Assembly: GCA_045536965.1 (NCBI GenBank)
Contig: JAZSON010000012.1
Span: 147,889-211,888, forward strand
Reading direction: 5' to 3'
DNA length: 64,000 nt
Origin: Eubacteriales bacterium
GTDB lineage: Bacteria; Bacillota; Clostridia; Oscillospirales; SIG627
Below are positions 40,058-62,361 of the stretch, in pieces (the first letter of the stretch is position 1; every line of letters begins with the position of its first letter). Both the position numbers and the translations under genes were made by a program. The notes beneath the pieces are model-generated. The model worked only from the letters and a program-made list of their open reading frames with translations. It was not told where the DNA came from and did not search any database.

Positions 40058-40294
40058 ATGAACGAACAAAAACCTACATTTGAAGAAGCCCTCGCACGGT
40101 TGGATGAAATTGTGCGCGGTCTGGAAGAACAAAAAACGCCGCTTGATTCCTCGTTGGCACTCTTTGAAGAGGGTGTCGGTCTTGTCAAAATTTGCACGCA
40201 ATTGCTTGACAACGCCGAACAAAAGGTGAAAATATTGACCCGTGATGAAAACGGGCAGGTAACCGAAGCGCCGTTCGTTGGTGAAAAATCATAA
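40058..40294 (+). CDS. xseB: Exodeoxyribonuclease VII small subunit
   Basis: TFEEALARLDEIVRGLEEQKTPLDSSLALFEEGVGLVKICTQLL. Confidence 0.9.
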   Translation: MNEQKPTFEEALARLDEIVRGLEEQKTPLDSSLALFEEGVGLVKICTQLLDNAEQKVKILTRDENGQVTEAPFVGEKS

Positions 40295-40311
40295 TTTCAC
40301 CCAAATACCCC

Positions 40312-40340
40312 TTGCCAAAACAAAGCATATATGCTATAAT
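40312..40340 (+). promoter_or_regulatory. Candidate sigma-A promoter of the LRR lipoprotein gene
   Basis: TTGCCA, 17 nt, then TATAAT. Confidence 0.6.
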
Positions 40341-40427
40341 GCAGACAGAATATCGAGTTTGTTTTTTTCTTGTAGGGAAAAACTCGGTATCCGTTCTGCC
40401 TATACTAATATTTTGGAGGACAAGTTT

Positions 40428-43723: not shown

Positions 43724-43752
43724 TTGACAAGCGAAATTGATTGTGCTATAAT
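43724..43752 (+). promoter_or_regulatory. Consensus sigma-A promoter of tRNA-Pro
   Basis: TTGACA, 17 nt, then TATAAT, ending 11 nt before the tRNA 5' end. Confidence 0.7.
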
Positions 43753-43763
43753 TTCTCTGTTAT

Positions 43764-43840
43764 CTGGGTGTGGCGCAGTTTGGTAGCGCGCTACCTTGGG
43801 GTGGTAGAGGCCGCTGGTTCAACTCCAGTCACTCAGACCA
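43764..43840 (+). tRNA. tRNA-Pro (anticodon GGG), CCA encoded
   Basis: Folded by hand. Acceptor CTGGGTG/CACTCAG, D arm GCGC..GCGC, anticodon arm CTACC-TTGGGGT-GGTAG, T arm GCTGG-TTCAACT-CCAGT, then ACCA. Confidence 0.85.
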
Positions 43841-43875
43841 AAATCCCGAACGCAATAGCGTTCGGGATTTTTTTC
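43841..43875 (+). terminator. Rho-independent terminator after tRNA-Pro
   Basis: AAATCCCGAACGCaataGCGTTCGGGATTTtttttcg. Confidence 0.8.
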
Positions 43876-43962: not shown

Positions 43963-45225
43963 TCAGAATAAGACTATCAAAAATTGGGAAACCAAAACAA
44001 CTGCAATCAAAGCGATGGGATAGGTTGCCGCATACGCCGCCGCCACATCCTCGGTGCCTGCGGTTCCGATCAGTGTGCCGAGAGCGGGGGTGCTGGTCAT
44101 ACCTCCGGTCAGAGAGCCGAGGTTATTGAGAAGGCTGAGCTTGAGGACATATTTGGCAAACAAGAAACCAATCACCATGGGAAGAAGTGTCATAATGGCG
44201 CCGTAAACAAAATACATGGGGTCAAAGTTTGCAACAAATTCCGCGCCGCCCGATACGCCTGCGCCTAAAAGGAACAGAACTAAGCCGAGTTCGCGCAAAA
44301 ATTTGAGCGTGGAGGCGGTAGGCATGATGCTGATTTTGCCAACACGGGAGAAATGACCGAAAACAAGGGCAACCAAGAGACATCCACCCGTAGAAGTTAA
44401 AGAAAAGCAAGTTCCCGAAAGGCCGTCGCCTGTAAGAGGAATCTTAATAGCACCAACGATTGTTCCAAGCAGAGCCGCAAGAGAAAAGACTGCAATGCCA
44501 TAGGAATCAAGTTGGAAGAGGCCTTTAACTTCCTTCTTTTCGCTGCCAACATCCACAACCGCAAGTTTTGCTCTTTCTTCTGCCATATTCGCTCCCATGA
44601 TTTTGGGAATAACCTGCACAAAGAGAACGACACCAAGCACGCCGAAGATATAGGCAATGCCATAGCCTACCGAAACAAGGCCGACATATTCCTCCGCAAC
44701 CGTTGCTTTCGCAGCGGCAAAAGCAGGGGTGGAGGTAAGCGCACCCGAGAAAAGTCCTGAAATCATCGCGGTAAATCCCTCAGAGGTCTCTATGGAAGAA
44801 CCATAACCAATCCCTTGTCCCATATAGATACATGCGACCGCTGATATACCACCTGCAAGGATAATAACCACACCGAGCAAGACGTAGGACTTGAAGTTTC
44901 TTTTCATATTGCCGAAAAACTTAGGTCCTGCGATAAAGCCAACAGCGGTTACAAAGAAGATAAGTCCGATTTTTTCCACAATGCTGAGCGCCTGTTCGAC
45001 AAATTCAACGCCGCCCGACTCCCCTTTAATTATAAGTTGATCGGAAAGGGGCGTGTAAAGAAGCGCGCCGAAAAGCAAAGCAATAATAAAAACACCGGAA
45101 CTGCCAAGAGAAATCCCTTTAATGGAGATTCTGCCAAAAGCGTAACCAACAAAAAGGATGGCCAGTACACAGAAAATAAAAAACGAAACCCCCGTAACGG
45201 GTATGACACCGCCAAACAAAGTCAT
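43963..45225 (-). CDS. AAE-family (AspT/YidE/YbjL/SucE-like) permease, candidate dicarboxylate/succinate transporter
   Basis: 420-aa polytopic protein with a duplicated motif (GISLGSSGVFIIALLFG...IGLIFFVTAVGFIAGPKFF and ...LGLVLFLLGAGVSGG..F). Last gene of the frd/hdr operon. Family call is from memory. Confidence 0.55.
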   Translation of the reverse strand: MTLFGGVIPVTGVSFFIFCVLAILFVGYAFGRISIKGISLGSSGVFIIALLFGALLYTPLSDQLIIKGESGGVEFVEQALSIVEKIGLIFFVTAVGFIAGPKFFGNMKRNFKSYVLLGVVIILAGGISAVACIYMGQGIGYGSSIETSEGFTAMISGLFSGALTSTPAFAAAKATVAEEYVGLVSVGYGIAYIFGVLGVVLFVQVIPKIMGANMAEERAKLAVVDVGSEKKEVKGLFQLDSYGIAVFSLAALLGTIVGAIKIPLTGDGLSGTCFSLTSTGGCLLVALVFGHFSRVGKISIMPTASTLKFLRELGLVLFLLGAGVSGGAEFVANFDPMYFVYGAIMTLLPMVIGFLFAKYVLKLSLLNNLGSLTGGMTSTPALGTLIGTAGTEDVAAAYAATYPIALIAVVLVSQFLIVLF

Positions 45226-45249
45226 TGCTTCATTCTTCCTTTCAATTTC

Positions 45250-46854
45250 TTAACCGTTTACCTTGCGGGTATAATCGGGAAGAAGTTTGGGAGATTGCAT
45301 TTGTGTTTCGATGTGCGCATCTGCGATCTCTTTTTCAAACGCATCAACATGTTTGAGGGTAAGCGCGCCGACCGTCGTTTCTTTTGCGGCGGCCGCTGCA
45401 TGAATACCTGCATTTCTGCCGAACACAATGATGTCGAGCAGAGAGTTACCCATCAAACGGTTTTTGCCATGAATACCGCCGACCGCTTCGCCGGCAACAA
45501 AGAGATTTTTAATGTTGGTGGTTTCGCCGTCAACATTGATGTCAAGACCACCATTCTGGTAGTGGAGAGTGGGGTAAATCAAGATCGGTTCTTTGCGGAT
45601 GTCAATGCCATATTTTGCAAACATACGCATCATAGCGGGAATGCGACGCTCGATGGTGCCTTCTCCTCCGATCTTTTCGATCATAGGAGTATCCAACCAA
45701 ACGCCCTGACCGTTGCCTGTGTCAATACCGTTGTCTCTTTCGGAGCATTCACGGATAACACTTGCGGCAGTTACATCGCGCGTTTCCAACGGATGCATAA
45801 AGACTTCGCCGTTTTTATTGACAAGCTTTGCGCCGAGAGAACGCACCTTTTCGGTAACAAGAGCACCAAAGATCTGTGCAGGATAGGCCGCGCCCGTCGG
45901 ATGGTATTGCAAGGTTTCGGCATAGAGAAGCTTTGCACCTGCGCGATAACCCAAAACCAAACCATCAGCAGTTGCGCCATAGTGGTTGGAGGTCGGGAAT
46001 CCTTGATAGTGCATACGACCTGCGCCGCCCGTTGCGATGACAACGGTCTTTGCTTTGGCAACAAGAAGTTCTTTGGTCTCCATATTCATGAGCACCGCAC
46101 CTGCAGCTGCGCCGTTTTCATCTAAAATCAGTTCAATAGCAGCGGTAAAATCAACCACAGTAATACCGCGGTTAAGAACTTCATCACGCAAAGTTCTCAT
46201 AATTTCGGCACCCGAATAGTCCTTGGCCGCGTGCATACGTTTTCTGGAGATACCACCACCATGGGTAGTGATCATAGTACCGTCTGCTTCCTTATCAAAT
46301 TCCACGCCAAGGTTAGAAAGCCAATGGATGGCATCGGGAGCATCGCATACAAGTTTTGCAAGCAATTCGCGTTTTGCGGCAAAGTGACCGCCGCCAAAAG
46401 CATCCACAAAGTGAATCGCGGGGGAGTCGTTGGGTTTGTCTGCCGCCTGAATGCCGCCTTCTGCCATCATGGTATTGGCATCCCCCATGCGAAGCTTGGT
46501 TACAATCATAACGTTTGCACCCGCTTCATGCGCTTCAATGGCCGCAGAGGTACCTGCGCCGCCGCCACCAATGATGAGAACGTCGGTTTCATAATCATGG
46601 GAGGAAAGATCCACGCTGTCAGCGGTGATTCTGCTGTGCGCTTGCAGAATTTGTGCAAGCTCCTTGGGTACTTTTTCTCCCTTGTTCGGACCGATTTTAA
46701 GTGTTTCGAATTCATCCTCTTTATAATCGGGATGGAAGGTAGACAGCACCTGCTCCTTCTGCTCGGCAGTCATACGGACGGGTTCAAAAGCAATGTTTTT
46801 TTCACGCGCGGCTTCCACCAACGCAAGAGATTCTTGGAACTGTTCAGAATACAT
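45250..46854 (-). CDS. Fumarate reductase/succinate dehydrogenase-type FAD flavoprotein (soluble FrdA/TfrA-like)
   Basis: DVLIIGGGGAGTSAAIEA, HPTG, TEKVRSLGAKL, and NRLMGNSLLD blocks of the FrdA/SdhA/NadB family. Has a ~95-aa N-terminal extension. Confidence 0.75.
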   Translation of the reverse strand: MYSEQFQESLALVEAAREKNIAFEPVRMTAEQKEQVLSTFHPDYKEDEFETLKIGPNKGEKVPKELAQILQAHSRITADSVDLSSHDYETDVLIIGGGGAGTSAAIEAHEAGANVMIVTKLRMGDANTMMAEGGIQAADKPNDSPAIHFVDAFGGGHFAAKRELLAKLVCDAPDAIHWLSNLGVEFDKEADGTMITTHGGGISRKRMHAAKDYSGAEIMRTLRDEVLNRGITVVDFTAAIELILDENGAAAGAVLMNMETKELLVAKAKTVVIATGGAGRMHYQGFPTSNHYGATADGLVLGYRAGAKLLYAETLQYHPTGAAYPAQIFGALVTEKVRSLGAKLVNKNGEVFMHPLETRDVTAASVIRECSERDNGIDTGNGQGVWLDTPMIEKIGGEGTIERRIPAMMRMFAKYGIDIRKEPILIYPTLHYQNGGLDINVDGETTNIKNLFVAGEAVGGIHGKNRLMGNSLLDIIVFGRNAGIHAAAAAKETTVGALTLKHVDAFEKEIADAHIETQMQSPKLLPDYTRKVNG

Positions 46855-46868
46855 TGTGCTGCACCTCC

Positions 46869-47549
46869 TTATTTTTCAATCTCACGGGTATTGTAAAGTT
46901 CTTTCAGTTCGTCAATCGGCTTATCCATCAAAGCTTCAATCAGTTCTTTGAAAGTGCCATCTTTGATTTCGCGAACGCGGTCTTCAAGATGATTGCAACC
47001 CGGAGCAAGATATTTGCCGTTGATACGGCGGGCAAGCATGGCAACCTGCGGATGCGAAATGCCCGCGGGACAGCGAGAGGAACAAACGCCGCACATTACG
47101 CAGTCAAAGGATTCTTCGGCACAAGCGGCAAAATCGCCCCGTTGTGCGTAAGCAATGTACTGCATAACATTCAATTCCTGCGTACAAACTTTGGTACAGG
47201 CATTGCAACCAACGCAAGCATAGATTTCGGGGTAAAGCTGCATCATCACGGCCTCGGAGGGGGTGATCTTCTCCATGTCATAGACCTGCTTGACAAGGGG
47301 GAAGAACGGCAAAGTGGCAATGTACATATTGTCTTCCACTTTGGTTTGGCAAGCCAAACATGCCTTCAGTTCGCGGTCTCCTTTAATACGGTACAAGGTG
47401 GCGCAGGCACCGCAGAATCCGTTTCTGCAGCCGCAACCACGCACCAACTGATACCCTGCGTATTCCATTGCCGTCATGATTGTCAGCTCTGCCGGAACCT
47501 CATACTTTTTTCCAAACAGAAAAATATTTACTGTGTTTCCCATTTTCAT
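46869..47549 (-). CDS. Fe-S subunit (2Fe-2S plus two Cys clusters, FrdB/SdhB-like)
   Basis: CGCRNGFCGACATLY...C (2Fe-2S type), CVGCNACTKVC, CVMCGVCSSRCP. Confidence 0.7.
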   Translation of the reverse strand: MKMGNTVNIFLFGKKYEVPAELTIMTAMEYAGYQLVRGCGCRNGFCGACATLYRIKGDRELKACLACQTKVEDNMYIATLPFFPLVKQVYDMEKITPSEAVMMQLYPEIYACVGCNACTKVCTQELNVMQYIAYAQRGDFAACAEESFDCVMCGVCSSRCPAGISHPQVAMLARRINGKYLAPGCNHLEDRVREIKDGTFKELIEALMDKPIDELKELYNTREIEK

Positions 47550-47558
47550 ATACCTCCA

Positions 47559-48392
47559 TCAATATTCGCTCGGAAGCTCATCCAGCTCGTCGCAACGGAA
47601 GACAGGTCCGTCTTTACATACATATTTTGCGCCTACGTTACAACGGCCGCACTTGCCGACACCGCATTTCATGCGCAATTCAAGGGTGGTATAAATCTGC
47701 GTCTTATCAAAGCCGAGTCCGCAAAGTCCCTCTAACGTAAATTTGATCATAATAGGAGGTCCGCAAAGAACCGCTATCTTATTGGTATCAAATCCGAGTT
47801 CCTTCACATAATTCGGTACAAATCCAACGTGTCCGTCCCACTCGGGCTGCTCACGGTCAATGGTCAAGTGAACATGCACGTTTTCATCATTTTGCCATTC
47901 TTCTATGATTTCCTTGTAATCAAGCAAATCTTCTTTGGAACGAGAGCCATATACGATATCAATGCGGCCATATCTGTCGCGGTAGTGGCGGCAGTAATTG
48001 ATGACAGAGCGGAGGGGAGCAAGTCCAACACCGCCCGCAATAAAGAGCAAATCGTGTCCCGCAAACACATCGTCTACAGGGAACGGCTTGCCGTACGGTC
48101 CTCGCACGGTGATCATCTGGCCAACCTCTGCGGCGTGAAGCCACTCGGTTACACAACCGCATTTTTTAATGGAAAATTCCATATACTCGGTGTTTGTCGG
48201 AGAAGAGGTGATCGAAAACATTGCCTCACCGACACCCGGAACCGACAACATGGCACATTGTCCGGGTCTGTGTTCAAAAGGTTTTTTCCCATCAGGCGTT
48301 ACGACACGGAACGTCTTAATATCCGGTGTATCGATCCGCACATCGGTAATAACACCCACAACCGGTATCAGGGCTTCATTCATTTCAGCCAT
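47559..48392 (-). CDS. FAD/NAD(P)-binding oxidoreductase with C-terminal 2Fe-2S (FlxA/AsrB/HydG-like)
   Basis: RPGQCAMLSVPG, LLFIAGGVGLAPL, CGVGKCGRCNVG. Confidence 0.7.
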   Translation of the reverse strand: MAEMNEALIPVVGVITDVRIDTPDIKTFRVVTPDGKKPFEHRPGQCAMLSVPGVGEAMFSITSSPTNTEYMEFSIKKCGCVTEWLHAAEVGQMITVRGPYGKPFPVDDVFAGHDLLFIAGGVGLAPLRSVINYCRHYRDRYGRIDIVYGSRSKEDLLDYKEIIEEWQNDENVHVHLTIDREQPEWDGHVGFVPNYVKELGFDTNKIAVLCGPPIMIKFTLEGLCGLGFDKTQIYTTLELRMKCGVGKCGRCNVGAKYVCKDGPVFRCDELDELPSEY

Positions 48393-49410
48393 TTTTATTA
48401 CCCTCCAATGCTTTCATTACCTTCACAATATTCATAGAGATGGGACATTTTGCAAGACATCTGCCACATCCGACACACGAAAATTCACCGCCGTTATTTT
48501 CGGGGAAGTACACCAGTTTATGCATAAACCGTTGACGGAACCGCTCTTTTTGCGAGTTGCGGTTGTTGCCATGCGCCATTTTGGTGAAGTCCGAATACAT
48601 ACAAGAATCCCAGCAACGATAGCGGACAACGCCATTGTTGGTCTTATAGTCGCGGATGTCATAGCATTGACAGGTGGGACAAACAAAGGTACAAGTACCG
48701 CATCCGAGGCAGCTTTCCGAAAGTTTTTCCCAAGCGGGAGAGTTGAAAAATGCATCCGTTTTCCCGCCGCCAAAGGCATCTGTCTTCAAATCGGCAAGCG
48801 GAAGACGTTTCATGATATTCAAAATCTTTTCTTTCTGTGCATCAACAACGCTCTCGTCACCCGCCGTAGCAAGATCGGATACGAGTGCTACAAAAACTTC
48901 GCCCTTTTGGGTGTTTGCACAAAAATGGAGTTCATCGCCGCAAATCCAAGCGCTGACATCCCCCATCGGCAAAGATGCATCAATACCAAACGTTTGGCAG
49001 AAGCAATTTTCGGTGGGACGATTACAAGCAAGAGAAACGATGATGCCGTGTTCACGACGAGCCGCATAATAACTGTCGAGCGGTTCGGCGAGAAAAACGC
49101 GGTCAAGAATTTCAAGCGCTTTTACATCACAATTACGAACACCGAAAACAACAAAATCCTCGGTTTCGCTTCTTGTGTCAACAATTTCGATCTTTTTGCC
49201 CTCTGTTTTAAAGGCCATAAGATCTTCGCTCTGCGGGAAAAAGAGATCCTTGGGGCCTCTCACTGTATTCACCGCATGACTCCAAACAGAACCGGACTGC
49301 CATTTTTTATAAACAGCGCCGTTTTTATCCTCAACCGGCAAATACAGCGACATAGAAGCGGAAACTCTCTCAAAAAGCTTATCTACATTCGAAAGCGCAA
49401 TTTTAAGCAC
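48385..49410 (-). CDS. 4Fe-4S dicluster protein (FlxB/AsrA-like)
   Basis: CLGCGTCTFVCPTCQCYD and CVGCGRCLAKCP. 8-nt overlaps with both neighbouring genes. Confidence 0.65.
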   Translation of the reverse strand: MLKIALSNVDKLFERVSASMSLYLPVEDKNGAVYKKWQSGSVWSHAVNTVRGPKDLFFPQSEDLMAFKTEGKKIEIVDTRSETEDFVVFGVRNCDVKALEILDRVFLAEPLDSYYAARREHGIIVSLACNRPTENCFCQTFGIDASLPMGDVSAWICGDELHFCANTQKGEVFVALVSDLATAGDESVVDAQKEKILNIMKRLPLADLKTDAFGGGKTDAFFNSPAWEKLSESCLGCGTCTFVCPTCQCYDIRDYKTNNGVVRYRCWDSCMYSDFTKMAHGNNRNSQKERFRQRFMHKLVYFPENNGGEFSCVGCGRCLAKCPISMNIVKVMKALEGNKNG

Positions 49411-50401
49411 GATTGCCGCCTCCTTTCACGACGTCGGAAGGTTCGGGATCTTCACGGGTAAAATTGACAAGCGGGGCGCGCTGATCGGATTCGCGGCCTG
49501 CTTGGTACTCTCCGTACGTTTCGTTGATGTCTTTAATAAACTTACGGTTCAACAGATGCAAGGGAATGTTTTGCGGACACACGCGCGAACATTCTCCGCA
49601 ATCGGTACATCTTCCCGCAACGTGGTATGCGCGGATGATGTGGAATAATTTTTCTTCAAAATCTCCACCCGGAGCCTTGCTTTCAACACCCGATGCGGGG
49701 TTGTCAAATACGCATTTTTCACAAGTACAGGCGGGACAAGCATCACGACAGGCATTGCAGCGGATGCAACGGGACAATTCGTTTTGCCAGAAGGCAAAAC
49801 GCTCGTCGGGACTCATGGCTTCAAGGCGGGCAACCTCATCAAAACGGGACGAGGCCAATTCTTCTCCATCGTCGCCAATCAGCTCATCATAAGCAACATG
49901 CTTTTTAGATTTGCAGGTCACACAGCGCTCCAAAAGAACATCTGCCAAAGCCACGCGTTTGGGTTGCTCATCAAAAATGGTATGCACAACCAATCCATTG
50001 CTTTCTTCTTCGACAGATGCGATACCTTCACCTGTTATTTTGCGAATGGCTTGAATATCCGCCATGCCGTTACAAGGGATGCCAATGGCATACACCTTTT
50101 CACGATCAAAGCGATGCTCACACAAAAGCTGGTTAAAGCTGTAAGTATCACAGGGTTTTAAAAATACAAGGATCTTTCCTTCGATTTCCCGCGTCTTTTT
50201 CACCAAATATTTGGAAAGATTGGCGCCGGAAAAATCGTTATAGACAAAGCCGTCGACAAGCTCCTCTGCGGTAGTAAAAACAGCAGGGGTCAAGTCGTAA
50301 TCAAACTCGCCGCGCTTCCATCCGAGAACGGCAGCAACGGTACCGTCGGCAAGTAAGGATGCCGCGCGATCGCATAATACTTTGGTCGTTACTGTTTGCA
50401 T
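49403..50401 (-). CDS. Fe-S protein (FlxC-like)
   Basis: CIRCNACRDACPACTCEKC and CTDCGECSRVCP. Confidence 0.6.
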   Translation of the reverse strand: MQTVTTKVLCDRAASLLADGTVAAVLGWKRGEFDYDLTPAVFTTAEELVDGFVYNDFSGANLSKYLVKKTREIEGKILVFLKPCDTYSFNQLLCEHRFDREKVYAIGIPCNGMADIQAIRKITGEGIASVEEESNGLVVHTIFDEQPKRVALADVLLERCVTCKSKKHVAYDELIGDDGEELASSRFDEVARLEAMSPDERFAFWQNELSRCIRCNACRDACPACTCEKCVFDNPASGVESKAPGGDFEEKLFHIIRAYHVAGRCTDCGECSRVCPQNIPLHLLNRKFIKDINETYGEYQAGRESDQRAPLVNFTREDPEPSDVVKGGGNRA

Positions 50402-50826
50402 CGCAGATCCTCCAATCTCTTGTTCGGGCCAAGAGCCGTTACCTTTTCAACAAAATCATTCATCGTAGCGGCAAATTTTGCGCCCTCTGCAGCAGATACC
50501 CACTCGACGCGGGTGCGCTCGCGTTCAATGCCGAGATAGTCGAGCATGGAAAAGAGCATCGACATTCTGCGGCGGGTATAATAGTTGCCCGTCGAATAAT
50601 GGCAGTCGCCCGGATGACATCCACAAAGAATCACGCCATCCGCACCGCGCTGAAAAGCGCGCAGGATAAACATGGGGTTGACACGACAGGAGCAGGGAAC
50701 ACGGATGATTTTTACATCCGCGGGATAAGCGAGACGGTTAGAGCCTGCAAGATCGGCACCAGCATACGAACACCAGTTACAGCAAAACGCCACGATTTTG
50801 GGTTTGAAGTCTTTTACATCTTGCAT
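50389..50826 (-). CDS. MvhD/FlxD-like hydrogenase delta-subunit family protein
   Basis: KIVAFCCNWCSYAGADLAG...IIRVPCSCRVNPMFILRAFQRGADGVILCGCHPGDCHY. Confidence 0.8.
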   Translation of the reverse strand: MQDVKDFKPKIVAFCCNWCSYAGADLAGSNRLAYPADVKIIRVPCSCRVNPMFILRAFQRGADGVILCGCHPGDCHYSTGNYYTRRRMSMLFSMLDYLGIERERTRVEWVSAAEGAKFAATMNDFVEKVTALGPNKRLEDLRCKQ

Positions 50827-52811
50827 ATCGCATCCACCTCCGCCATAATTTGATTATTCTTGAATCCATTCAGATCCATTGCACCCGAAGGACAAGCAAC
50901 GGTGCAAGCGCCGCAACCCTGACAAACTGCGGGATTGACCTTGGCCACCCGACGCATTCTCGTCGTACGATCGGGCATTCTGAATTCTTTGTCCTCGTAA
51001 GAAATCGCTCCGTAAGGACAGACTCTTTCACAAGAGGAACAACCGTTGCACATCAGCTCATTCGACTGCGCAATACAGGGGTTTCCTGTCAAGAAATCTT
51101 TGCAAAGCAGGCCGATGACCTTACTTGCCGCCGCGCCCGCTTGAGCAACCGTTTCGGGAATATCCTTGGGACCTTGGCAGGCACCCGAAAGGAAAACGCC
51201 TGCCGTGGGAGATTCCACGGGGCGAAGCTTCGGATGCGCTTCGGTAAAGAAATCATTGGTATCCATAGAAGCTGTCAGCATAGTCGCAAGAGGACGCGCA
51301 GATTTATCCGGCTCAATCGCTGCCGCCAATACCACAAGATCGGCATCGATCTGCAGTTGTTTGCCATTGATAAGATCGGATGCCTGTACCAGCAATTTTT
51401 TGCCTTCGGGTACAACCTTACCGACCATACCTTTTACATAATGCACACCGTACTCTTCTACCGCACGGCGATAGAATTCGTCAAATGCCTTGCCGGGTGT
51501 ACGCACATCGATATAGAATACATACACTTCGGTATCGGGATATTTATCACGGGTGAGCATAGCGTGCTTGGCCGTATACATACAACAAATCTTCGAGCAA
51601 TATTCCTTGCCCTTTTCGGTGCAGTTTTCACAACGCGAACCCACACACTGCACAAACACGATCTTGTGCGGATGTTCGCCGTCGGAAGGACGAAGCAGTT
51701 TGCCCGCGGTGGGACCTGCGGCGTTGGTCAGACGCTCGAATTCAAGAGAAGTGATAACGTCTTTAGAGTCTGCGTAAGCAAACTCATTGAATTTATCCAT
51801 GGAAATGGGATTGTAACCGGTCGCAACGACGATAGCACCGTATTTTTCTTCGATAAATTCATCTTTTGCTTTATAATCAATGGCGCCTGCGGTACAAACC
51901 TTGGAACAAACACCGCATTTTCCGCTTTTTAACATGGTGCAGTAGTCGGGATCGATGGTTGCGACCTTCGGCACTGCCTGCGCGAACGGAATATAGATGG
52001 CGCGGCGATTATCCATGCCAAGATTGAACTCATTGGGTACCTTCTTCTGTGGACATTTTTCGGTACACAACCCGCAACCCGTACAAATATCTTCTTTCAC
52101 ATAACGGGCTTTTCGTTTGATGGTTACATCAAAATTGCCCACATATCCGCCCACTTTGGATACTTCGCTGTAAGAAAAAATGCGAATTTTCTCATTTTGT
52201 GCGGCGTCCACCATCTTGGGGGTGAGGATACATGCGGCACAGTCAAGTGTCGGGAAGGTTTTATCCAGTTGTGCCATTTTTCCGCCGATGGTAGGTTTGG
52301 TTTCGACGATATCAACCGGGAATCCTGCATCAGCAATATCCAATGCGGTCTGAATGCCCGCAATACCGCCACCGATCACCAATGCACGCTTGGTAACGGG
52401 CGACTGTCCCGGTGTAAGCGGTGCGTTCAAATTGACCTTGGCCACGGCCGCTTTGCCGAGAATGATGGCTTTTTCGGTGCCTGTAACCGTATCCTTATGT
52501 ATCCACGAACATTGTTCACGAATGTTGGCAATCTCCACCATATACGGATTAAGCCCTGCTGCAGAAGCGGTTTTGCGGAAAGTGGCCTCATGCATACGAG
52601 GTGAACAAGAGCAAACGACAATACCACTCAAACGATGCTCTGCAATGGCGTTTTTGATAATATCTTGTCCCGCTTGGGAACACATATATTGATAATCGGT
52701 AGAAAAGACCACACCGGGTTCCATTTTAAGTGCTTCGGCCACGGCATGAACATCCACGGTTCCTGCAATGTTTGAGCCGCACCAGCATACAAATACGCCG
52801 ATTCTTTGCAT
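50814..52811 (-). CDS. hdrA: Heterodisulfide reductase subunit A-like flavoprotein
   Basis: 665 aa. RIGVFVCWCGSNIAG, ALVIGGGIAGIQTALDIADAG, and several ferredoxin-type Cys clusters (CTGCGLCTEKCP, CGVCSKVC, CNGCSSCERVCP, CQGCGACTVACP). Confidence 0.8.
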   Translation of the reverse strand: MQRIGVFVCWCGSNIAGTVDVHAVAEALKMEPGVVFSTDYQYMCSQAGQDIIKNAIAEHRLSGIVVCSCSPRMHEATFRKTASAAGLNPYMVEIANIREQCSWIHKDTVTGTEKAIILGKAAVAKVNLNAPLTPGQSPVTKRALVIGGGIAGIQTALDIADAGFPVDIVETKPTIGGKMAQLDKTFPTLDCAACILTPKMVDAAQNEKIRIFSYSEVSKVGGYVGNFDVTIKRKARYVKEDICTGCGLCTEKCPQKKVPNEFNLGMDNRRAIYIPFAQAVPKVATIDPDYCTMLKSGKCGVCSKVCTAGAIDYKAKDEFIEEKYGAIVVATGYNPISMDKFNEFAYADSKDVITSLEFERLTNAAGPTAGKLLRPSDGEHPHKIVFVQCVGSRCENCTEKGKEYCSKICCMYTAKHAMLTRDKYPDTEVYVFYIDVRTPGKAFDEFYRRAVEEYGVHYVKGMVGKVVPEGKKLLVQASDLINGKQLQIDADLVVLAAAIEPDKSARPLATMLTASMDTNDFFTEAHPKLRPVESPTAGVFLSGACQGPKDIPETVAQAGAAASKVIGLLCKDFLTGNPCIAQSNELMCNGCSSCERVCPYGAISYEDKEFRMPDRTTRMRRVAKVNPAVCQGCGACTVACPSGAMDLNGFKNNQIMAEVDAICKM

Positions 52812-52828
52812 GGTATCTTCTCCTCCCT

Positions 52829-53215
52829 TTATTTCGTGTATTTACGGAACGCGCTGACAAGAAGCTGTCCCGGAGTATTTTCGTCCAGCATTGCCGGAAC
52901 GTCGTCTGCCGTCATGCGATTCGCGCCTTGTTTTCTGATGGCAAGAAGGCGCACCGCCTCAATCAGTTTGGCAGGTTCAACACCGCGCGGGCATCTCTCC
53001 ATGCAAGCAAAGCAGGACAGACAACGATAGATCGAATCGGACTGCAATAGCACATCGATCTCGCCGTTATCGATCATCGACACAAATTGATGGGGATGAT
53101 ACTCCATCCCATCGTATGCGGGGCAGGTTGCTGTACACTTACCGCACTTCATACATTTTTTTACGTTAACACCGCTGATGCGGAGGATTTCTTTTTTCAT
53201 TTCGTTATTTGTCAT
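52829..53215 (-). CDS. hdrC: Heterodisulfide reductase subunit C-like 4Fe-4S protein
   Basis: CMKCGKCTATCP and CLSCFACMERCP. Start chosen at ATG 53215, 6 nt after AAGGAGG. Confidence 0.7.
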   Translation of the reverse strand: MTNNEMKKEILRISGVNVKKCMKCGKCTATCPAYDGMEYHPHQFVSMIDNGEIDVLLQSDSIYRCLSCFACMERCPRGVEPAKLIEAVRLLAIRKQGANRMTADDVPAMLDENTPGQLLVSAFRKYTK

Positions 53216-53999
53216 TTCCATCCTCCTTGACACCCAGCGCTTCGGCTAAAAGCTCTGTGAAATAAACAACCGGAAGTTTTTCGCCGTTCTTTTCAAGATT
53301 ATACTTGCAAAGGGGACAGGCTGTCACAAGCATATCGGCACCTGCCGCCGCGGCGTTGTCCATGATCTTTTGGCTGTTTTTCTCAGCAATTGAGGGCTGT
53401 TCGGCATAAACATAGCCGCCACAGCATTCGTTGCGTCTTGCATAAATGATCGGCTCGCCGCCAAGCGCGCGAATCAATTCTTCTATGATCTGCGGATTTT
53501 CGGGATCATCCATCCCCATAACTTTACCGGGACGAAGGAGCAAACAACCGTAATATGCGCCGATCTTTTTGCCGACAAGCGGTTTCTTAACTGCTTTTTT
53601 TACGTTTTCAAAACCAACCACATCACGGAGAAATTCCAAATAATGATATACCGTTGTTTCGCCGTGGTAGGGTGTTTCTTCCTGCATATAACGATTGACA
53701 CGATCGGCAAAAACAGCATCATTCCGCATGGCATAATTGGTCTGCTTCACAACATTGTGGCAAGCAGAACATACGGTCAAAAGCACTTGATCCTTTTCTT
53801 TTGCAGCACGCAAAAGACGGACTGAGGATAACTTGGTCGCCACTTCATCGTTTGCCGTAGTAAATACACCGCCGCAACACTGCCATGTTTCAGGCTCTTC
53901 CAAAGTTACACCCAACGCTTTTGCGCTTTTTCTTGCATATTCATCCAAATCCCGCGCCTTATTTTTCAAAGTACAGCCGGGAAAATACGTCACTTTCAT
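53205..53999 (-). CDS. hdrB: Heterodisulfide reductase subunit B-like protein (two CCG domains)
   Basis: MKVTYFPGCTL...WQCCGG and YYGCLLLRPG...NECCGG...CPLC. Confidence 0.8.
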   Translation of the reverse strand: MKVTYFPGCTLKNKARDLDEYARKSAKALGVTLEEPETWQCCGGVFTTANDEVATKLSSVRLLRAAKEKDQVLLTVCSACHNVVKQTNYAMRNDAVFADRVNRYMQEETPYHGETTVYHYLEFLRDVVGFENVKKAVKKPLVGKKIGAYYGCLLLRPGKVMGMDDPENPQIIEELIRALGGEPIIYARRNECCGGYVYAEQPSIAEKNSQKIMDNAAAAGADMLVTACPLCKYNLEKNGEKLPVVYFTELLAEALGVKEDGNDK

Positions 54000-54016
54000 A
54001 ATAACCCCCATTAAAA

Positions 54017-55393
54017 TCAGCACATTTCTTCGGGATGGAATACCTCATCAAATTTTTCTGCCGTCAAAAAGCCGAGTTCTACACAGGCTTCTTTGAGCGA
54101 AATGTTGTCTTTGTATGCTTTCTTTGCCGTTTTGGCCGCATTTTCATATCCGATATAAGGATTGAGCGCAGTAACGAGCATCAGTGAATTGTGCAGATTG
54201 TGATGCATCTTTTCTCGATTGGCTTTAATTCCTACCGCGCAATTCTTATTGAAAGAAACGATGACCTCGGCAAGAAGTCTCGCCGACTGCAGGAAATTGT
54301 AAGCCGCCACGGGCATAAACACGTTCAATTCGAAGTTGCCCTGCGATGCTGCGACACCGACTGCCACATCATTACCCATCACCTGCGCGGCAACCATGGT
54401 CACCGCCTCGCACTGGGTAGGATTGACCTTACCCGGCATAATGGAGGAACCCGGTTCGTTTTCGGGAATGAAAATTTCACCCAAACCATCGCGGGGGCCG
54501 GATGCAAGCCAACGCACGTCATTGGCTATTTTCATCATATCACAAGCGGTCGCTTTGATGGCGCCGTGCGCAAAGACAAGTTCGTCCTTAGAGGTAAGCG
54601 CATGGAATTTATTGGCCGCCGTTACAAAGGGTTTGCCCGTCAACAAGGCGCATTTTTCAGCGACGAGAGTATCAAATCCTTTGGGGGCGTTCAAGCCGGT
54701 TCCGACAGCGGTACCGCCAAGCGCCAGTTCAAGAAGAGGTTTTACCGACAATTTCAAGAGTTCTACATCGCGTTCGAGCGAAGAACGCCAACCGCTGATT
54801 TCTTGGCTGAATTTGATCGGAGTGGCATCCTGCAAATGGGTTCGACCCGATTTTACAATGCCTTCATTTTCGTCTTCAAGACGCTTAAAGGTGGCAATCA
54901 ATTCTTCGACCGCCGGAATCAATTTATCTTCCAACGCAATAACAGCAGAAATGTGCATTGCGGTGGGGAAGGTATCGTTGCTCGATTGACTCATGTTCAC
55001 ATCATCGTTGGGATGGGTCAATTCTTTGCCCGCGATTTGGTTGGCACGGTTGCGAATGACCTCATTGGAGTTCATGTTCGACTGCGTACCCGAACCCGTT
55101 TGCCATACGACAAGAGGAAAGTGATCCATCAACTTACCTGCAATCACTTCATCGCAGGCGGCGGTGATCGCATCCACTTTTTCTTTTGTCATCTTTTCGG
55201 GCTTTAACTCGTGGTTGGCCAAAGCAGCGGCTTTTTTCAAAATGCCGAAAGCATGTACGATCTCGCGCGGCATGGTTTCAATGCCTACACCGATCTCAAA
55301 GTTTTCGCAACTTCTCTGCGTTTGCGCTGCCCACAATCTATCTGCGGGTACTTTCATTTCTCCCATAGAGTCATGTTCAATCCGATATTCCAT
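54017..55393 (-). CDS. fumC: Class II fumarate hydratase
   Basis: EHDSMGEMKVPADRLWAAQTQRS, GSSIMPGKVNPTQCE. Confidence 0.9.
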   Translation of the reverse strand: MEYRIEHDSMGEMKVPADRLWAAQTQRSCENFEIGVGIETMPREIVHAFGILKKAAALANHELKPEKMTKEKVDAITAACDEVIAGKLMDHFPLVVWQTGSGTQSNMNSNEVIRNRANQIAGKELTHPNDDVNMSQSSNDTFPTAMHISAVIALEDKLIPAVEELIATFKRLEDENEGIVKSGRTHLQDATPIKFSQEISGWRSSLERDVELLKLSVKPLLELALGGTAVGTGLNAPKGFDTLVAEKCALLTGKPFVTAANKFHALTSKDELVFAHGAIKATACDMMKIANDVRWLASGPRDGLGEIFIPENEPGSSIMPGKVNPTQCEAVTMVAAQVMGNDVAVGVAASQGNFELNVFMPVAAYNFLQSARLLAEVIVSFNKNCAVGIKANREKMHHNLHNSLMLVTALNPYIGYENAAKTAKKAYKDNISLKEACVELGFLTAEKFDEVFHPEEMC

Positions 55394-55462
55394 CTCGCGT
55401 TTCCTTTCTGCTAATAGAAAAATACAAAGTTATGAGAAAATATTTTTAATTGGTTTCAGATC

Positions 55463-56416
55463 TTACCACGAAACACCCGCAATGACTGCTTTGAGCGCTT
55501 CTGCGGATTTGTGCATTTTTTCATGCTCTTCGGGCGAGAGATTTGTGGTAAGAATAGAGCGCACACCCGTATGATCCACCAGCGAAAGAGAGCTGAGGCA
55601 AACATCATGCAAATCGCATTCGCCTTCATGGAGCGCAGAAACCGTCAACACGGCACCTGCACTGCCACCGAGCATTTTGACAATGTGCGTGGTAGCCATA
55701 CCGATTCCGTAAACGGTAGAGCCCTTGCGAGCAATGATTTTACCGCCGGATTTTCTAACATAATTTTCGACATCCTCACGATCATATTTGATCGGAACGT
55801 TATAGATAGACGTCGTCGCCAGGTTATATTCATCGAGAGGAACACCCGCGATGGTTGCGGAAGACCAAGCCACGAAGGATGTATCGCCATGTTCACCGAG
55901 AACATGGGCGTGCACCTGTTGTTTATTGACATTGTAAATCTCGGCAAGACGGGTACGGAGACGAATGGTATCCAATGCCGTTCCTGTGCCGAACACCTGA
56001 TTTTTAGGCAGTCCCGAATATTTCAAAAACGCGTATGTTAATATATCCACAGGATTTGCTACAAGAATATAGATGGCATTGGGAGCCACTTTAATAATGG
56101 GTTGGCAAATTTGCTTGATGATACCCACGTTGGTTTGCACGAGTTCAAGACGAGACTGTCCCGGTTTTCTTCCGATGCCCGAAGTAATAATCACAACATC
56201 CGATCCGGCTGCATCCTCATAACTTCCCGCATAAATATCGCAGTTGTCGATAAAAGGGGTTCCCTGCTTAATATCCAGTGCCTCACCGAGCGCTCTCTCG
56301 GTGTTGATATCAATCAAAACGATCTCGGAAGCCGCCCCGCGGGTAAGCAAGGCAAACGCAGCGGTTGCACCAACTGCACCGGCTCCTATAATTGTGATTT
56401 TCTTTTGCATGGTCAA
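55463..56416 (-). CDS. mdh: LDH-family 2-hydroxyacid dehydrogenase, predicted malate dehydrogenase
   Basis: ITIIGAGAVGATAAFAL, and GIGRKPGQSRLEL with Arg where L-LDHs carry Gln. Catalytic H in LGEHGD. Confidence 0.6.
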   Translation of the reverse strand: MTMQKKITIIGAGAVGATAAFALLTRGAASEIVLIDINTERALGEALDIKQGTPFIDNCDIYAGSYEDAAGSDVVIITSGIGRKPGQSRLELVQTNVGIIKQICQPIIKVAPNAIYILVANPVDILTYAFLKYSGLPKNQVFGTGTALDTIRLRTRLAEIYNVNKQQVHAHVLGEHGDTSFVAWSSATIAGVPLDEYNLATTSIYNVPIKYDREDVENYVRKSGGKIIARKGSTVYGIGMATTHIVKMLGGSAGAVLTVSALHEGECDLHDVCLSSLSLVDHTGVRSILTTNLSPEEHEKMHKSAEALKAVIAGVSW

Positions 56417-56428
56417 TCTCCTATCTGA

Positions 56429-56965
56429 TTAAAAATAACATACTTTGACCCATTTTCCCATTTTCATCAGGCAATCGGATAATTCCTTGACGAGATTCAT
56501 TTTTTTATCAAAAGGAATGGGAAAATCGGAAGATTGGTGGGCAGGATTTATTGCCTGACCCACAAAAAAATTCACATTGTTTGCTTTTTCAAATAAAAAT
56601 CGGCCGATTAAGGAAGCACCGTCCTCCATGAAACGCCACTCCCCATATAATTTTCTGTCACCAAGGTAATCCTTTGCGTACAACAAAACCTTGTCGAGGG
56701 TCAACACGCCGTCTGTCACGAGATCCACACCCTCAAGATGGGCGATTGGCGGAACATCATCACAGACATAATCCAAACCGACACGAAGCGGCTTGTCAAG
56801 ATATTTCGCCGCAATCGAAGCGGTTGTGCCGCCGCACACGATGTGAATACCCTCTTCGGCAAAAAAACGAGACGTCATTTTTGTCGCCTTATCAGGAGCG
56901 GCGGGAGGACCGAATAATATATTCAACGTCTTATGTGTTTCGGTCTGTTCACACAAATCCTTCAT
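56429..56965 (-). CDS. Hypothetical protein (178 aa), first gene of the mdh-fumC-hdr-flx-frd unit
   Basis: RBS aaaggag. Contains the IVCGGTTASIAAKYL motif. No confident family assignment. Confidence 0.4.
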   Translation of the reverse strand: MKDLCEQTETHKTLNILFGPPAAPDKATKMTSRFFAEEGIHIVCGGTTASIAAKYLDKPLRVGLDYVCDDVPPIAHLEGVDLVTDGVLTLDKVLLYAKDYLGDRKLYGEWRFMEDGASLIGRFLFEKANNVNFFVGQAINPAHQSSDFPIPFDKKMNLVKELSDCLMKMGKWVKVCYF

Positions 56966-57120: not shown

Positions 57121-58806
57121 TCAGTGTTTCTTATAATGAACGTGAAGCATTCCGTGGACATCGCCTTTGATCACGTCCTCATAGATAGCCGCCAAAGCGG
57201 GGTTTTCTTCGCTTCTTCTGATGCTCAAAAGACGGTCGGCTTCATAGAGACCGCGGCTGCGAGCGCCGCAACCATCCTTATCAACATACGGCTGGCCGCC
57301 GCCGTTGATACATCCGCCCGGACAAGCCATGATTTCAATGAAATCAAAGTGTTCTCCGGCCTTCACTCTTTCGAGAACGGATTCTGCATTGCCCAGACCG
57401 CTGACAACAGCAATCTTCAATTCTTTTTCGCCGAAAGGAACCGTAAATTCTTTAATGCCGTCGTTGCCTCTCTGTCCTGCGTTAGCAACAGACATAAGAG
57501 CGCCGCGGGTTTTGTCGGAAGAAACTCTGCGAAGAACCGCTTCTGTTACACCGCCGGTCACGCCGAAAATAACACCTGCGCCGGAAATGGTACCAAACGG
57601 CATATCCACAGCTTCGGGCTCCAATACATCAAACATAACGCCGGATTCCTTGATCATAACAATCAGCTCTTGGGTGGTGATAACAGCATCCACATTCGGA
57701 CCGAGCTCGGTTTTGAATTCTTCTCTTTCGGCCTCGAATTTCTTACCCGTACAAGGCATGATGGCTACATGGAACATCTTTTTGCCGGAATCATCACGTT
57801 TCTTCAAAACGGAAGCCATCATCTGCATGGGAGAACGGCAGGTAGAAACATTGGGCAAAAATTCAGGATGCTTCTTCTCGCAGAACTGAATCCAACCGGG
57901 ACAGCAGGAGGTGATGAGGGGGAGGTTTTCACCCGATTCAAGACGAGCGGCAAATTCTGCGGATTCCTCCAAAACGGTCAGGTCGGCACCGAGCGTGGTA
58001 TCATACAGCTCATCAAAGCCCATGCGACGAAGTGCGGCGACGATTTTACCGAACACATTTGAACCCTCGGGCATGTCGAGCTCTTTGCCGATGGCAACAC
58101 GAACGGCGGGGGCAATCTGTACGGTGGTTTTTACATTGGGATCGTCAATCGCTTTCCAGACCTTATCGATGTCATTCTTGACAACGATAGCACCGGTAGG
58201 ACAAACAGCCGCACACTGGCCGCAACCAACACAGGGAGATTCGGCAAGAGGCTTGCCAAACGCCGTGCTGATGATCATATTGGAACCGCGACGGGCAAAA
58301 TCAATGGCGCCGACGTGCTGGATCTCGTTACAAACTCTGACGCAATCGCCGCAAAGAATGCACTTGCCGGCATCGCGAGAAATGCAGGGAGAGGATTCAT
58401 CTTCCCCTTTAGTGGATTTGGCGCGATTGGGGAAGCGAACGCCTTCGATGTTAAAGCGCATCGCAAGATCCTGCAATATACATTTGTTGTTGTTTTCACA
58501 AATCGTGCAATCTCTGCAATGGTTTGCAAGAAGAAGTTCAAGAATGTTTTTGCGGTAACGACGCAGTCTTTCGGTGTTGGTCTTTACCGATGCGCCCGCC
58601 TTGGGAGGCATGGAGCAAGCGGCATCCAAACCGCCCCACTCGTTTTCTACCATACACATACGGCAGGCACCGTATATAGAAAGCTCCGAATGATAGCAGA
58701 AGGTAGGCATTTTAATGCCAATCTTGCGGCACAGTTCAAGAACGTTCTTTTCCCCCTCGATCAGTACGGGGATGCCATCTATGATCATATATTTCTTATC
58801 GCTCAT
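57121..58806 (-). CDS. hydA: [FeFe]-hydrogenase catalytic subunit HydA (multimeric, bifurcating type)
   Basis: Start at MSDKKY (AGGAGG upstream). N-terminal 2Fe-2S and F-cluster cysteines. H-cluster motifs TSCCPGW, MPCTGKKFEA, EIMACPGGCINGGGQP. Confidence 0.9.
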   Translation of the reverse strand: MSDKKYMIIDGIPVLIEGEKNVLELCRKIGIKMPTFCYHSELSIYGACRMCMVENEWGGLDAACSMPPKAGASVKTNTERLRRYRKNILELLLANHCRDCTICENNNKCILQDLAMRFNIEGVRFPNRAKSTKGEDESSPCISRDAGKCILCGDCVRVCNEIQHVGAIDFARRGSNMIISTAFGKPLAESPCVGCGQCAAVCPTGAIVVKNDIDKVWKAIDDPNVKTTVQIAPAVRVAIGKELDMPEGSNVFGKIVAALRRMGFDELYDTTLGADLTVLEESAEFAARLESGENLPLITSCCPGWIQFCEKKHPEFLPNVSTCRSPMQMMASVLKKRDDSGKKMFHVAIMPCTGKKFEAEREEFKTELGPNVDAVITTQELIVMIKESGVMFDVLEPEAVDMPFGTISGAGVIFGVTGGVTEAVLRRVSSDKTRGALMSVANAGQRGNDGIKEFTVPFGEKELKIAVVSGLGNAESVLERVKAGEHFDFIEIMACPGGCINGGGQPYVDKDGCGARSRGLYEADRLLSIRRSEENPALAAIYEDVIKGDVHGMLHVHYKKH

Positions 58807-58807
58807 T

Positions 58808-62151: not shown

Positions 62152-62361
62152 CTCCTCGTTTTTTCGCTATTTTCACTCATATTCTATGGTATTCTATCAT
62201 ATTTTTATTGCGGTGGGAATTATACAAATGTTATATCGAGGTTATATATATCGATATAACCAAAATCGATATTATCTGCATCAATGGAAACGGGCGGCTT
62301 TGCTTTTTTGCAAAACCGCCCGTTTTTCAACACTTTTTCCTCAAAATCAATTTATAAAAAA

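Follow-up and report, generated by a model that had tools for sequence, protein, structure and literature searches.

A bifurcating fumarate reductase built around an Flx-Hdr complex is not a new idea, having been published since 2019, and several described gene clusters can be compared with the operon considered here. This operon lies on the minus strand of a 64,000-nucleotide stretch of DNA from a member of the Eubacteriales (contig JAZSON010000012.1, positions 147,889 to 211,888 of the forward strand; the whole stretch is called the window below), and it joins genes for malate dehydrogenase (MDH), fumarase, an Flx-Hdr module, a soluble fumarate reductase-like pair, and a permease. The operon is a genuine and strongly conserved feature, and its family is very common among uncultured Clostridia of the gut. 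On balance, though by no means with certainty, it appears to encode an oxaloacetate-to-succinate branch with a probable exporter, in which an NADH-dependent fumarate reductase would also reduce ferredoxin by flavin-based bifurcation at HdrA. The window offers a fuller instance of a known operon design, with mdh and an AAE-family permease gene inside the operon and a recurrent hydrogenase neighbourhood.

Comparison with described systems

The "succinate operon" of Pseudoclostridium (Acetivibrio) thermosuccinogenes (CDQ83_RS03315-03365) has been proposed to encode a bifurcating Flx-Hdr fumarate reductase (PMC7282089), and a 2019 preprint by Koendjbiharie and van Kranenburg, as cited in that paper, made the same proposal. 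In addition to a fumarate hydratase gene, the operon holds seven genes for an Flx-Hdr complex, two for a fumarate reductase, and one for a small hypothetical protein; the organism is a known succinate producer in which the operon genes are highly expressed and co-regulated (PMC7282089), and according to earlier work cited there, added H2 abolishes succinate formation. Compared by gene order and sizes only, it resembles the window in carrying fumC, hdrB-hdrC-hdrA-flxD-flxC-flxB-flxA, and frdB-frdA, with sizes of 1602 nucleotides for RS03320 (1605 in the window), 675 for RS03325 (681), and 1365 for fumC (1377). In contrast to the window, its last gene encodes an 83-residue hypothetical protein and not an AAE permease, mdh is not reported in the operon, and the adjacent HydABC and Rex are absent.

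In the reductive tricarboxylic acid (rTCA) cluster of tubeworm symbionts (Candidatus Endoriftia) and Thioflavicoccus mobilis, tfrAB is interspersed with flxABCD-hdrABC and korABCD (PMC6315080, PMC11636981). As in the window, a TfrAB-like soluble fumarate reductase is linked to Flx-Hdr, and electron transfer from NADH to fumarate and ferredoxin has been proposed. However, in these Gammaproteobacteria the cluster serves to fix CO2 autotrophically, and OGOR, ACL, PntAB, and Rnf are linked to it, whereas the window points to a fermentative setting with mdh, fumC, and a candidate exporter gene. In its arrangement, the symbiont cluster is closer to a kor-hdrA-mvhD-hdrCB-frdBA cluster (L084, described below) than to the window operon.

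TfrAB of Methanothermobacter is a thiol:fumarate reductase (Heim et al. 1998, as cited in PMC6315080). It resembles the window system in being soluble and in combining FrdA-type chemistry with CCG-domain clusters, and TfrA and the N-terminus of TfrB are the best family matches of the corresponding window proteins. In TfrB, however, the FrdB-like part is fused to a CCG domain, whereas in the window the CCG domain belongs to a separate HdrB; TfrA has a C-terminal domain, whereas the window flavoprotein is without it and scores far under the equivalog cut-offs; and Tfr obtains its electrons from coenzyme M (CoM-SH) and coenzyme B (CoB-SH), whereas NADH is the presumed donor in the window.

For FlxABCD-HdrABC of Desulfovibrio vulgaris, DsrC was proposed as the acceptor (Ramos et al. 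2015, as cited in PMC7282089 and PMC6315080). Compared by domains, it has the same seven-subunit inventory as the window, but the window order hdrBCA-flxDCBA is inverted relative to it, and the high-potential acceptor in the window would be a dedicated FrdAB-like module within the operon instead of DsrC. The methanogen HdrABC-MvhAGD complexes (5odc, 8rvu, 7bkb) contain clear homologues of the window HdrA, HdrB, HdrC, and MvhD; those complexes take electrons from H2 or formate and deliver them to CoM-S-S-CoB, whereas the window presumably uses NADH via FlxABC and fumarate via FrdAB. E. coli FrdABCD (1kf6) is the best structural match of the window flavoprotein and has identical catalytic residues. 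In contrast to the window, which encodes no membrane anchors or quinone site, the E. coli enzyme is membrane-bound and quinol-linked, and its FrdA has the covalent flavin adenine dinucleotide (FAD) ligand His44 and a C-terminal domain, where the window protein has an Asn and no such domain. The iron-sulfur (Fe-S) subunit carries two [4Fe-4S] motifs in the window, as opposed to one [4Fe-4S] and one [3Fe-4S] cluster in E. coli.

Organization and conservation of the operon

Thirteen tightly spaced open reading frames (ORFs) run along the minus strand from 56965 to 43963, so that the "twelve-gene operon" of a preliminary description of this DNA is corrected to 13 by the coordinates and by that description's own list; the ORF positions, overlaps, gaps, and motifs it gave are all accurate.

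56429-56965, minus strand: 178-residue ORF, no match in Pfam, NCBIfam, or PDB
55463-56416, minus strand: mdh, LDH-like malate dehydrogenase, 317 residues, Ldh_1_N/C
54017-55393, minus strand: fumC, class II fumarate hydratase, 458 residues, Lyase_1 and FumaraseC_C, TIGR00979
53205-54023, minus strand: hdrB, 272 residues, two CCG domains (PF02754, two stretches)
52829-53233, minus strand: hdrC, 2x[4Fe-4S] protein, 134 residues, Fer4_8/Fer4_17, Fer4 dicluster
50814-52811, minus strand: hdrA, FAD and Fe-S subunit of the bifurcating type, 665 residues, HdrA-type, HdrA2 model
50389-50826, minus strand: mvhD/flxD, 145 residues, PF02662 FlpD
49403-50401, minus strand: flxC-like Fe-S protein, 332 residues, 4Fe-4S dicluster domain and position in the operon
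48385-49410, minus strand: flxB-like Fe-S protein (AsrA or sulfhydrogenase-beta type), 341 residues, Fer4_22
47559-48392, minus strand: flxA-like protein predicted to bind FAD, NAD(H), and 2Fe-2S, 277 residues, FAD_binding_6, NAD_binding_1, DHODB_Fe-S_bind
46869-47549, minus strand: frdB-like Fe-S subunit, 226 residues, Fer2_4/Fer2 and Fer4
45250-46854, minus strand: frdA/tfrA-like flavoprotein, 534 residues, FAD_binding_2
43963-45225, minus strand: AAE-family permease, 420 residues, two Asp-Al_Ex domains (PF06826)
43840-43871, strand undefined: perfect palindromic hairpin with a 14-bp stem and A/T runs on either side

Neighbouring genes overlap by 13 nucleotides at hdrA/mvhD and mvhD/flxC and by 8 nucleotides at flxC/flxB and flxB/flxA; hdrB and hdrC also overlap, by a length that is set by the choice of start codon. 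The remaining gaps are 17, 9, 14, and 24 nucleotides, and 69 nucleotides separate mdh from fumC. The motifs WQCCGG, NECCGG, FCCNWCSYAGADLAG, VIGGGIAGIQTALD, HPTG, RLMGNSLLD, and GSSIMPGKVNP are confirmed in the translations. Within the operon region, 23 terminator-like sites occur where 22.7 are expected from shuffles, a chance level that agrees with the earlier statement that no internal terminator was seen. The sole strong hairpin of the region, at 43840-43871, stands immediately past the permease gene and is likely a bidirectional terminator common to the operon and to a convergent tRNA-Pro gene. This tRNA-Pro (GGG) gene occupies 43764-43840 on the plus strand, and ahead of it lies a sigma-70 promoter match (12/12, extended TG; 43724-43752, plus strand).

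The nine-gene core hdrB-hdrC-hdrA-mvhD-flxC-flxB-flxA-frdB-frdA is collinear in 53 of 53 testable related Clostridia loci, namely those with enough upstream sequence, and is accompanied by fumC in 48 and by mdh in 45 of them. The genome survey of the hdrA-mvhD-flx-frdAB-fumC linkage that had been suggested earlier is supplied by these counts, which bear out the association of Flx-Hdr with an FrdAB-like reductase. Median identities are 86-88% for HdrA, MvhD, FlxA, FrdA, FrdB, and FumC, and 66-71% for HdrB, HdrC, FlxB, and FlxC. Across the loci L001-L080, which come from genomes labelled as different Clostridia families and orders, FrdA, FrdB, HdrA, MvhD, FlxA, and FumC are 82-96% identical; HdrB, HdrC, FlxB, FlxC, the permease, and above all mdh are far more divergent. 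The high identity reflects either unusually strong constraint or horizontal spread of the operon.

One scan of species-representative genomes returned at least 586 relatives of the flavoprotein, from the guts of ruminants and other animals. The best 80 of these are 82-91% identical and come from Clostridia metagenome-assembled genomes (MAGs), mostly of ruminant hindguts, with the labels Oscillospiraceae, Acutalibacteraceae, Ructibacterium, Congzhengia, and others; a literature search for the fermentation products of cultured Ructibacterium and Congzhengia found nothing useful. In protein clusters formed at 90% identity, single clusters contain up to 2098 member sequences.

The Hdr-Flx module

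The inventory of FlxABCD-HdrABC is complete in the window and consists of HdrA, HdrB, HdrC, an MvhD-like FlxD, an FlxA with FAD, NAD(P), and 2Fe-2S domains, and two Fe-S proteins. HdrA aligns over its full length with the solved methanogen HdrA (5odc_A; E 1e-201, 674 bits, residues 3-661), scores 780 bits with the HdrA2 model, and keeps the C-terminal 2x[4Fe-4S] domain that forms the ferredoxin side. In HdrB, both C...CC...CxxC (CCG) motifs are complete, and the protein matches HdrB chains in the PDB with E values of 1e-28 to 1e-33. Its scores with the HdrB model (145.6 bits) and with SdhE of methylmenaquinol:fumarate reductase (143.4 bits) are nearly equal, and because SdhE is a CCG-type subunit, a CCG protein that partners a fumarate reductase has a precedent.

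The other subunits are assigned by HdrC models (E about 1e-18 to 1e-19), by PF02662 FlpD for MvhD/FlxD (E 1e-55), and by a 4Fe-4S dicluster domain at residues 208-279 of the FlxC-like protein, whose gene always lies between mvhD and flxB in the related loci. The FlxB-like protein matches the ShyB, HydB, and AsrA models (E 1e-41 to 1e-54). The FlxA-like protein contains PF00970, PF00175, and PF10418, matches the sulfhydrogenase-gamma and AsrB models (E 1e-52 to 1e-68), and is the presumed entry point of NADH.

The flavoprotein and its iron-sulfur partner

The flavoprotein belongs to the SdhA/FrdA/NadB superfamily, with FAD_binding_2 at residues 91-472. Alignment with E. coli FrdA reveals that H232, T244, E245, R287, H355, and R390 are kept, and that His44, which binds FAD covalently in E. 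coli, corresponds to Asn127. When 17 family members, the most distant at 38% identity, are aligned, neither Asn127 nor any catalytic residue varies, a pattern from which the FAD is predicted to be non-covalent. FrdA variants without covalent FAD still reduce fumarate and oxidize succinate poorly; the replacement of the covalent-FAD His by Asn would therefore fit a one-way reductase.

The protein also departs from the canonical architecture. The C-terminal helical domain PF02910 has no match in it, and the match to the TfrA/SdhA models ends at about position 428 of 546; at the other end, the protein is extended by 86 N-terminal residues, among which the motifs FHPDY and GPNKG are conserved. Its NCBIfam scores are 343 for TfrA (NF004900; cut-off 718), 286 for SdhA/FrdA, and 267 for NadB (cut-off 452.75), so that TfrA is the best curated family, yet every curated cut-off is missed. 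Its nearest canonical-length relatives score 565-765 bits with TfrA, and thereby pass or approach the cut-off of 718. The AlphaFold2 model of the flavoprotein is confident, with a predicted local distance difference test score (pLDDT) of 89.5; among solved structures, E. coli FrdA matches its fold best (1kf6_A; E 1.8e-34, template modelling score 0.72).

In the FrdB-like protein, three sets of cysteines are invariant (Cys 41, 46, 49, and 67; Cys 112, 115, 118, and 122; Cys 150, 153, 156, and 160), and these sets are predicted to bind one 2Fe-2S and two [4Fe-4S] clusters. The best NCBIfam match, which is weak, is the N-terminal part of TfrB. The CCG domain of TfrB is absent from the 226-residue FrdB-like protein, and the operon's only CCG protein is the separate HdrB. 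The frdB-like gene always adjoins the flavoprotein gene, and the two are fused in P0121, a 727-residue protein on a 7.7-kb NCBI contig that is 58% identical over the flavoprotein part; this natural fusion supports a physical partnership of FrdB and FrdA. The pair earlier designated "FrdAB" is non-canonical in its missing covalent-FAD His and PF02910 domain, its 86-residue extension, its scores under the family cut-offs, and the two [4Fe-4S] motifs of the FrdB-like subunit and the weak likeness of that subunit to SdhB/FrdB.

Malate dehydrogenase, fumarase, and permease

The mdh product passes the NCBIfam cut-offs for L-lactate dehydrogenase (LDH). At the substrate-discriminating site (Q102 of LDH), however, Gln is replaced by the Arg of GIGRKPGQSR, and Arg also occupies this site in 32 of the 32 operon-linked mdh homologues in which the motif was located, and in the best PDB match, 1y6j of C. 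thermocellum, which was deposited as an LDH. The presence of the MDH-type Arg in all of these proteins makes the MDH assignment of the LDH-like protein reasonable, as had been proposed from the window alone. The case is an annotation pitfall, as the NCBIfam thresholds name the protein an L-lactate dehydrogenase despite the MDH-type Arg and the malate/fumarate operon. Identity of mdh to most of the related operons is only about 52%, with 77-78% in three loci, and this low identity suggests that mdh has been exchanged or diverges much faster than the remaining operon.

The fumC product scores 702 bits with TIGR00979, above the cut-off of 664.75, contains the motif GSSIMPGKVNPTQ, and meets the fumarase equivalog but not the aspartase equivalog. 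The gene identities proposed earlier are borne out by the Pfam and NCBIfam assignments, and the logic of a path from oxaloacetate through malate and fumarate to succinate holds as well.

The last gene encodes a permease with PF06826 (Asp-Al_Ex) in two stretches, that is, with a duplicated membrane domain. In 68 of 78 related loci, the permease gene comes immediately after frdA. The protein remains under every NCBIfam equivalog cut-off. It is a candidate exporter of dicarboxylates (succinate); the description "SucE-like" applies to it only at the level of the AAE family.

Distant relatives of the FrdB/FrdA-like pair

A search of 1.84 billion representative proteins, followed by gene-context look-ups, identified more distant relatives, in which the FrdB/FrdA-like pair behaves as a portable module. 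A Logan contig (SRR24270839; L084, 811-9771) carries korDABC-hdrA-mvhD-hdrC-hdrB-frdB-frdA with a 55% identical flavoprotein and no flx genes; its Hdr-linked FrdBA, beside a 2-oxoacid:ferredoxin oxidoreductase, resembles the rTCA clusters. On MAG contigs of marine Gammaproteobacteria/Thiotrichales (L081-L083, 9366-12891), an frdB-like gene (212 residues) and an frdA-like gene (545 residues) are followed by a single gene for a NuoF-like protein of 418 residues. The frdA-like protein of these contigs is 49% identical to the window protein and likewise has the N-terminal extension, and the module may be an undescribed three-subunit soluble NADH:fumarate reductase.

Among relatives at 40-46% identity, two contexts show the flavoprotein gene together with an Fe-S gene, and a third lacks the Fe-S partner. 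One lone frdA-like/frdB-like pair, at 43% identity, lies on a cyanobacterium-like contig (L085, GCA_902567285, 8001-10357; a cluster member is named Prochlorococcus sp. MIT 1201), and no donor module is evident beside it.

Proposed mechanism and alternative explanations

In the proposed pathway, MDH would convert oxaloacetate to malate and FumC would convert malate to fumarate. NADH would be oxidized at FlxA, which would hold FAD and a 2Fe-2S cluster, and FlxB, FlxC, and MvhD/FlxD would relay the electrons to the HdrA-bound FAD, where each electron pair would be split. The downhill electron would travel by way of HdrC and both non-cubane clusters in HdrB to the FrdB-like subunit, the non-covalent FAD of the FrdA-like subunit, and finally fumarate, while the uphill electron would reach ferredoxin (Fd) through the C-terminal Fe-S domain of HdrA. 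The overall reaction would be 2 NADH + fumarate + Fd(ox) -> 2 NAD+ + succinate + Fd(red), for which about -48 kJ/mol is calculated from textbook standard potentials of -320, +30, and -420 mV. Reduced ferredoxin would be re-oxidized by a hydrogenase, the adjacent HydABC in the window and a monomeric [FeFe] hydrogenase in many relatives, and succinate would be exported by the AAE permease. Consumption of the ferredoxin by hydrogenase is supported by the recurrence of hydrogenases beside the operon, of which HydABC in the window is one variant.

From the sequences, we infer that the subunits form a complex, that NADH is the donor and ferredoxin the co-acceptor, and that succinate is the exported substrate; direct electron transfer from HdrB to FrdB, with no thiol intermediate, is likewise a prediction. 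Whether HdrABC-FlxABCD-FrdAB forms a supercomplex that represents a new class of bifurcating enzyme, in which the non-cubane clusters of HdrB feed a TfrA-like reductase directly and without a thiol, is to our mind evenly balanced.

If bifurcation does take place, fumarate joins the few high-potential acceptors that drive ferredoxin reduction from NADH, and the gain that strictly fermentative, quinone-less Clostridia draw from succinate would be explained. Three NADH instead of two would be oxidized per succinate, with the surplus passing to ferredoxin and H2, and fumarate-driven ferredoxin reduction would support H2 release or Rnf-linked energy conservation. The operon may matter for the fluxes of succinate, propionate, and H2 in animal guts.

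Several points weigh against this proposal. The similarity of the FrdB-like protein to SdhB/FrdB is weak (E about 5e-4), and its structure model, built from a shallow alignment, is unusable (pLDDT 49). At 40-46% identity, the flavoprotein occurs with no donor module nearby, and FrdBA-like pairs are found alone. Two consensus patterns for Rex operators gave no site beyond chance near the operon or the hyd genes. A single transcription unit is deduced from gene spacing and the lack of terminators only. Because HdrB keeps a complete disulfide-reducing cluster site, a thiol/disulfide intermediate is still conceivable. In the literature, bifurcating fumarate reduction is still treated as a model or suggestion in 2024 (PMC11636981) and 2026 (PMC13147460). 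The literature search retrieved hypothesis papers only, and no purified or biochemically characterised enzyme of this operon type; the remark in the preliminary description that it was aware of no characterised bacterial Flx-Hdr-FrdAB fumarate reductase therefore stands, although the hypothesis had already been published.

The alternative that survives best, which we nevertheless regard as unlikely, is a non-bifurcating soluble NADH:fumarate reductase in which Flx-Hdr would serve as a plain wire between NADH and FrdAB, leaving ferredoxin unreduced. Electron transfer from NADH to fumarate is strongly exergonic by itself, and soluble NADH-dependent fumarate reductases exist; a five-subunit enzyme of this kind has reportedly been found in Hydrogenobacter thermophilus. 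A plain wire is difficult to reconcile, however, with a full-length HdrA that scores 674 bits with a solved bifurcating HdrA and keeps the Fe-S domain of the ferredoxin side, with the ferredoxin-type hydrogenases that recur beside the operon, or with the H2-sensitive succinate formation of P. thermosuccinogenes. Moreover, the FrdBA relatives of marine Gammaproteobacteria manage with one NuoF-like subunit, which leaves seven extra subunits hard to explain; since a single subunit suffices there, the seven-subunit Hdr-Flx module is likelier to add ferredoxin reduction. The absence of any reported assay of ferredoxin reduction in a member of the family (PMC11636981, PMC13147460) speaks for the simpler enzyme.

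A thiol shuttle in two steps is rather improbable. Here, Flx-Hdr would use NADH to reduce some disulfide, either of low molecular weight or DsrC-like, together with ferredoxin, and a Tfr-like reaction would spend the thiol on fumarate. In favour of a shuttle, the two complete CCG sites of HdrB are where heterodisulfide reduction is known to take place, no curated family is closer to the flavoprotein than the thiol:fumarate reductase TfrA, and both PMC7282089 and PMC11636981 leave this option open. Unlike TfrB, though, the FrdB-like subunit lacks a built-in CCG domain and consequently a thiol-oxidizing site; there is only one HdrB, and the conserved operon contains no DsrC-like or thiol-cofactor gene. 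The hdrB gene adjoins frdB in L084, and the two are fused in TfrB, which suggests direct contact between HdrB and FrdB.

It is very improbable that the flavoprotein acts on a substrate other than fumarate, such as aspartate (as in NadB) or another enoate, and yields a different end product: the protein falls under every curated cut-off (TfrA 343/718, NadB 267/452.75), its family also occurs in lineages with no fumC, mdh, or Hdr nearby, including the Prochlorococcus-like contig, and the AAE family includes aspartate:alanine exchangers, but all fumarate-site residues of E. coli FrdA are kept, fumC and an Arg-type MDH share the operon in 48/53 and 45/53 genomes, the fumC product passes the fumarase and not the aspartase equivalog, and in a succinate producer, the homologous operon has been proposed to encode the fumarate reductase. 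A NadB-like or other substrate was judged unlikely on the site residues, the family scores, the Arg of MDH, and the fumarase call.

The 178-residue ORF and the hydrogenase neighbourhood

The first of the thirteen ORFs, which the preliminary description had placed in the operon, proved not to be conserved there: a homologue stands beside the operon in 1 of 47 related loci (L016). Homologues number 463, some of them named Ser/Thr phosphatase or SpoIIE, and in other genomes they lie between a gene for a HydS-like protein and a monomeric [FeFe] hydrogenase gene (L089, 9001-9498; L090, 8400-9582). A role in the fumarate pathway was rejected, as the homologues occur in hydrogenase-regulation clusters; the ORF probably lies outside that pathway and is assigned to hydrogenase regulation. 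By its sequence, it is predicted to be a stand-alone C-terminal part of a hydrogenase-associated phosphatase-like protein, and the parent protein normally sits between the HydS-like sensory hydrogenase and the monomeric [FeFe] hydrogenase.

Upstream of the ORF, after a spacer of 155 nucleotides, the hydrogenase genes and rex follow on the same strand:

57121-58881, minus strand: hydA, Fe_hyd_lg_C
58808-60694, minus strand: hydB, NuoF-like domain
60694-61170, minus strand: hydC, NuoE-like domain
61215-61457, minus strand: 80-residue thioredoxin-like 2Fe-2S ORF between rex and hydC
61519-62151, minus strand: rex, NF003994 232 bits, above the cut-off

Hydrogenase neighbours were counted in those 47 related loci for which upstream sequence was available. 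In 17, the gene immediately upstream, in the same orientation, encodes a monomeric [FeFe] hydrogenase (TIGR04105, 569 bits; cut-off 450). The tie to HydABC drawn in the preliminary description is therefore plausible as a hydrogenase link, but HydABC is only one variant, and in many relatives the hydrogenase is a monomeric [FeFe] enzyme. The monomeric hydrogenase gene stands ahead of mdh or fumC, at 9-1436 in L017 and within the first 500-1400 or so nucleotides in the 16 others; in L017, L034, and L065, it occupies the place of mdh. Rex and a thioredoxin-like 2Fe-2S protein are each encoded directly upstream in 2 of the 47 loci. In L056 and L070, small ORFs similar to the 80-residue one of the window precede the operon; in L089 and L090, such ORFs occur in pairs ahead of the HydS-like genes.

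Further upstream, the intergenic region ahead of rex (62152-62361, minus strand) contains a strong hairpin terminator after a LysR-family gene. Beyond this terminator, an AT-rich region carries ATATCGAT/TATAAC elements in repeated form, which may serve as an operator and do not match the Rex-box consensus patterns. Elsewhere, the window encodes a 757-residue aconitase-family protein (18891-21164, plus strand) and a 755-residue BspA-type leucine-rich-repeat protein (40278-42545, plus strand), a type of protein typical of host-associated bacteria.

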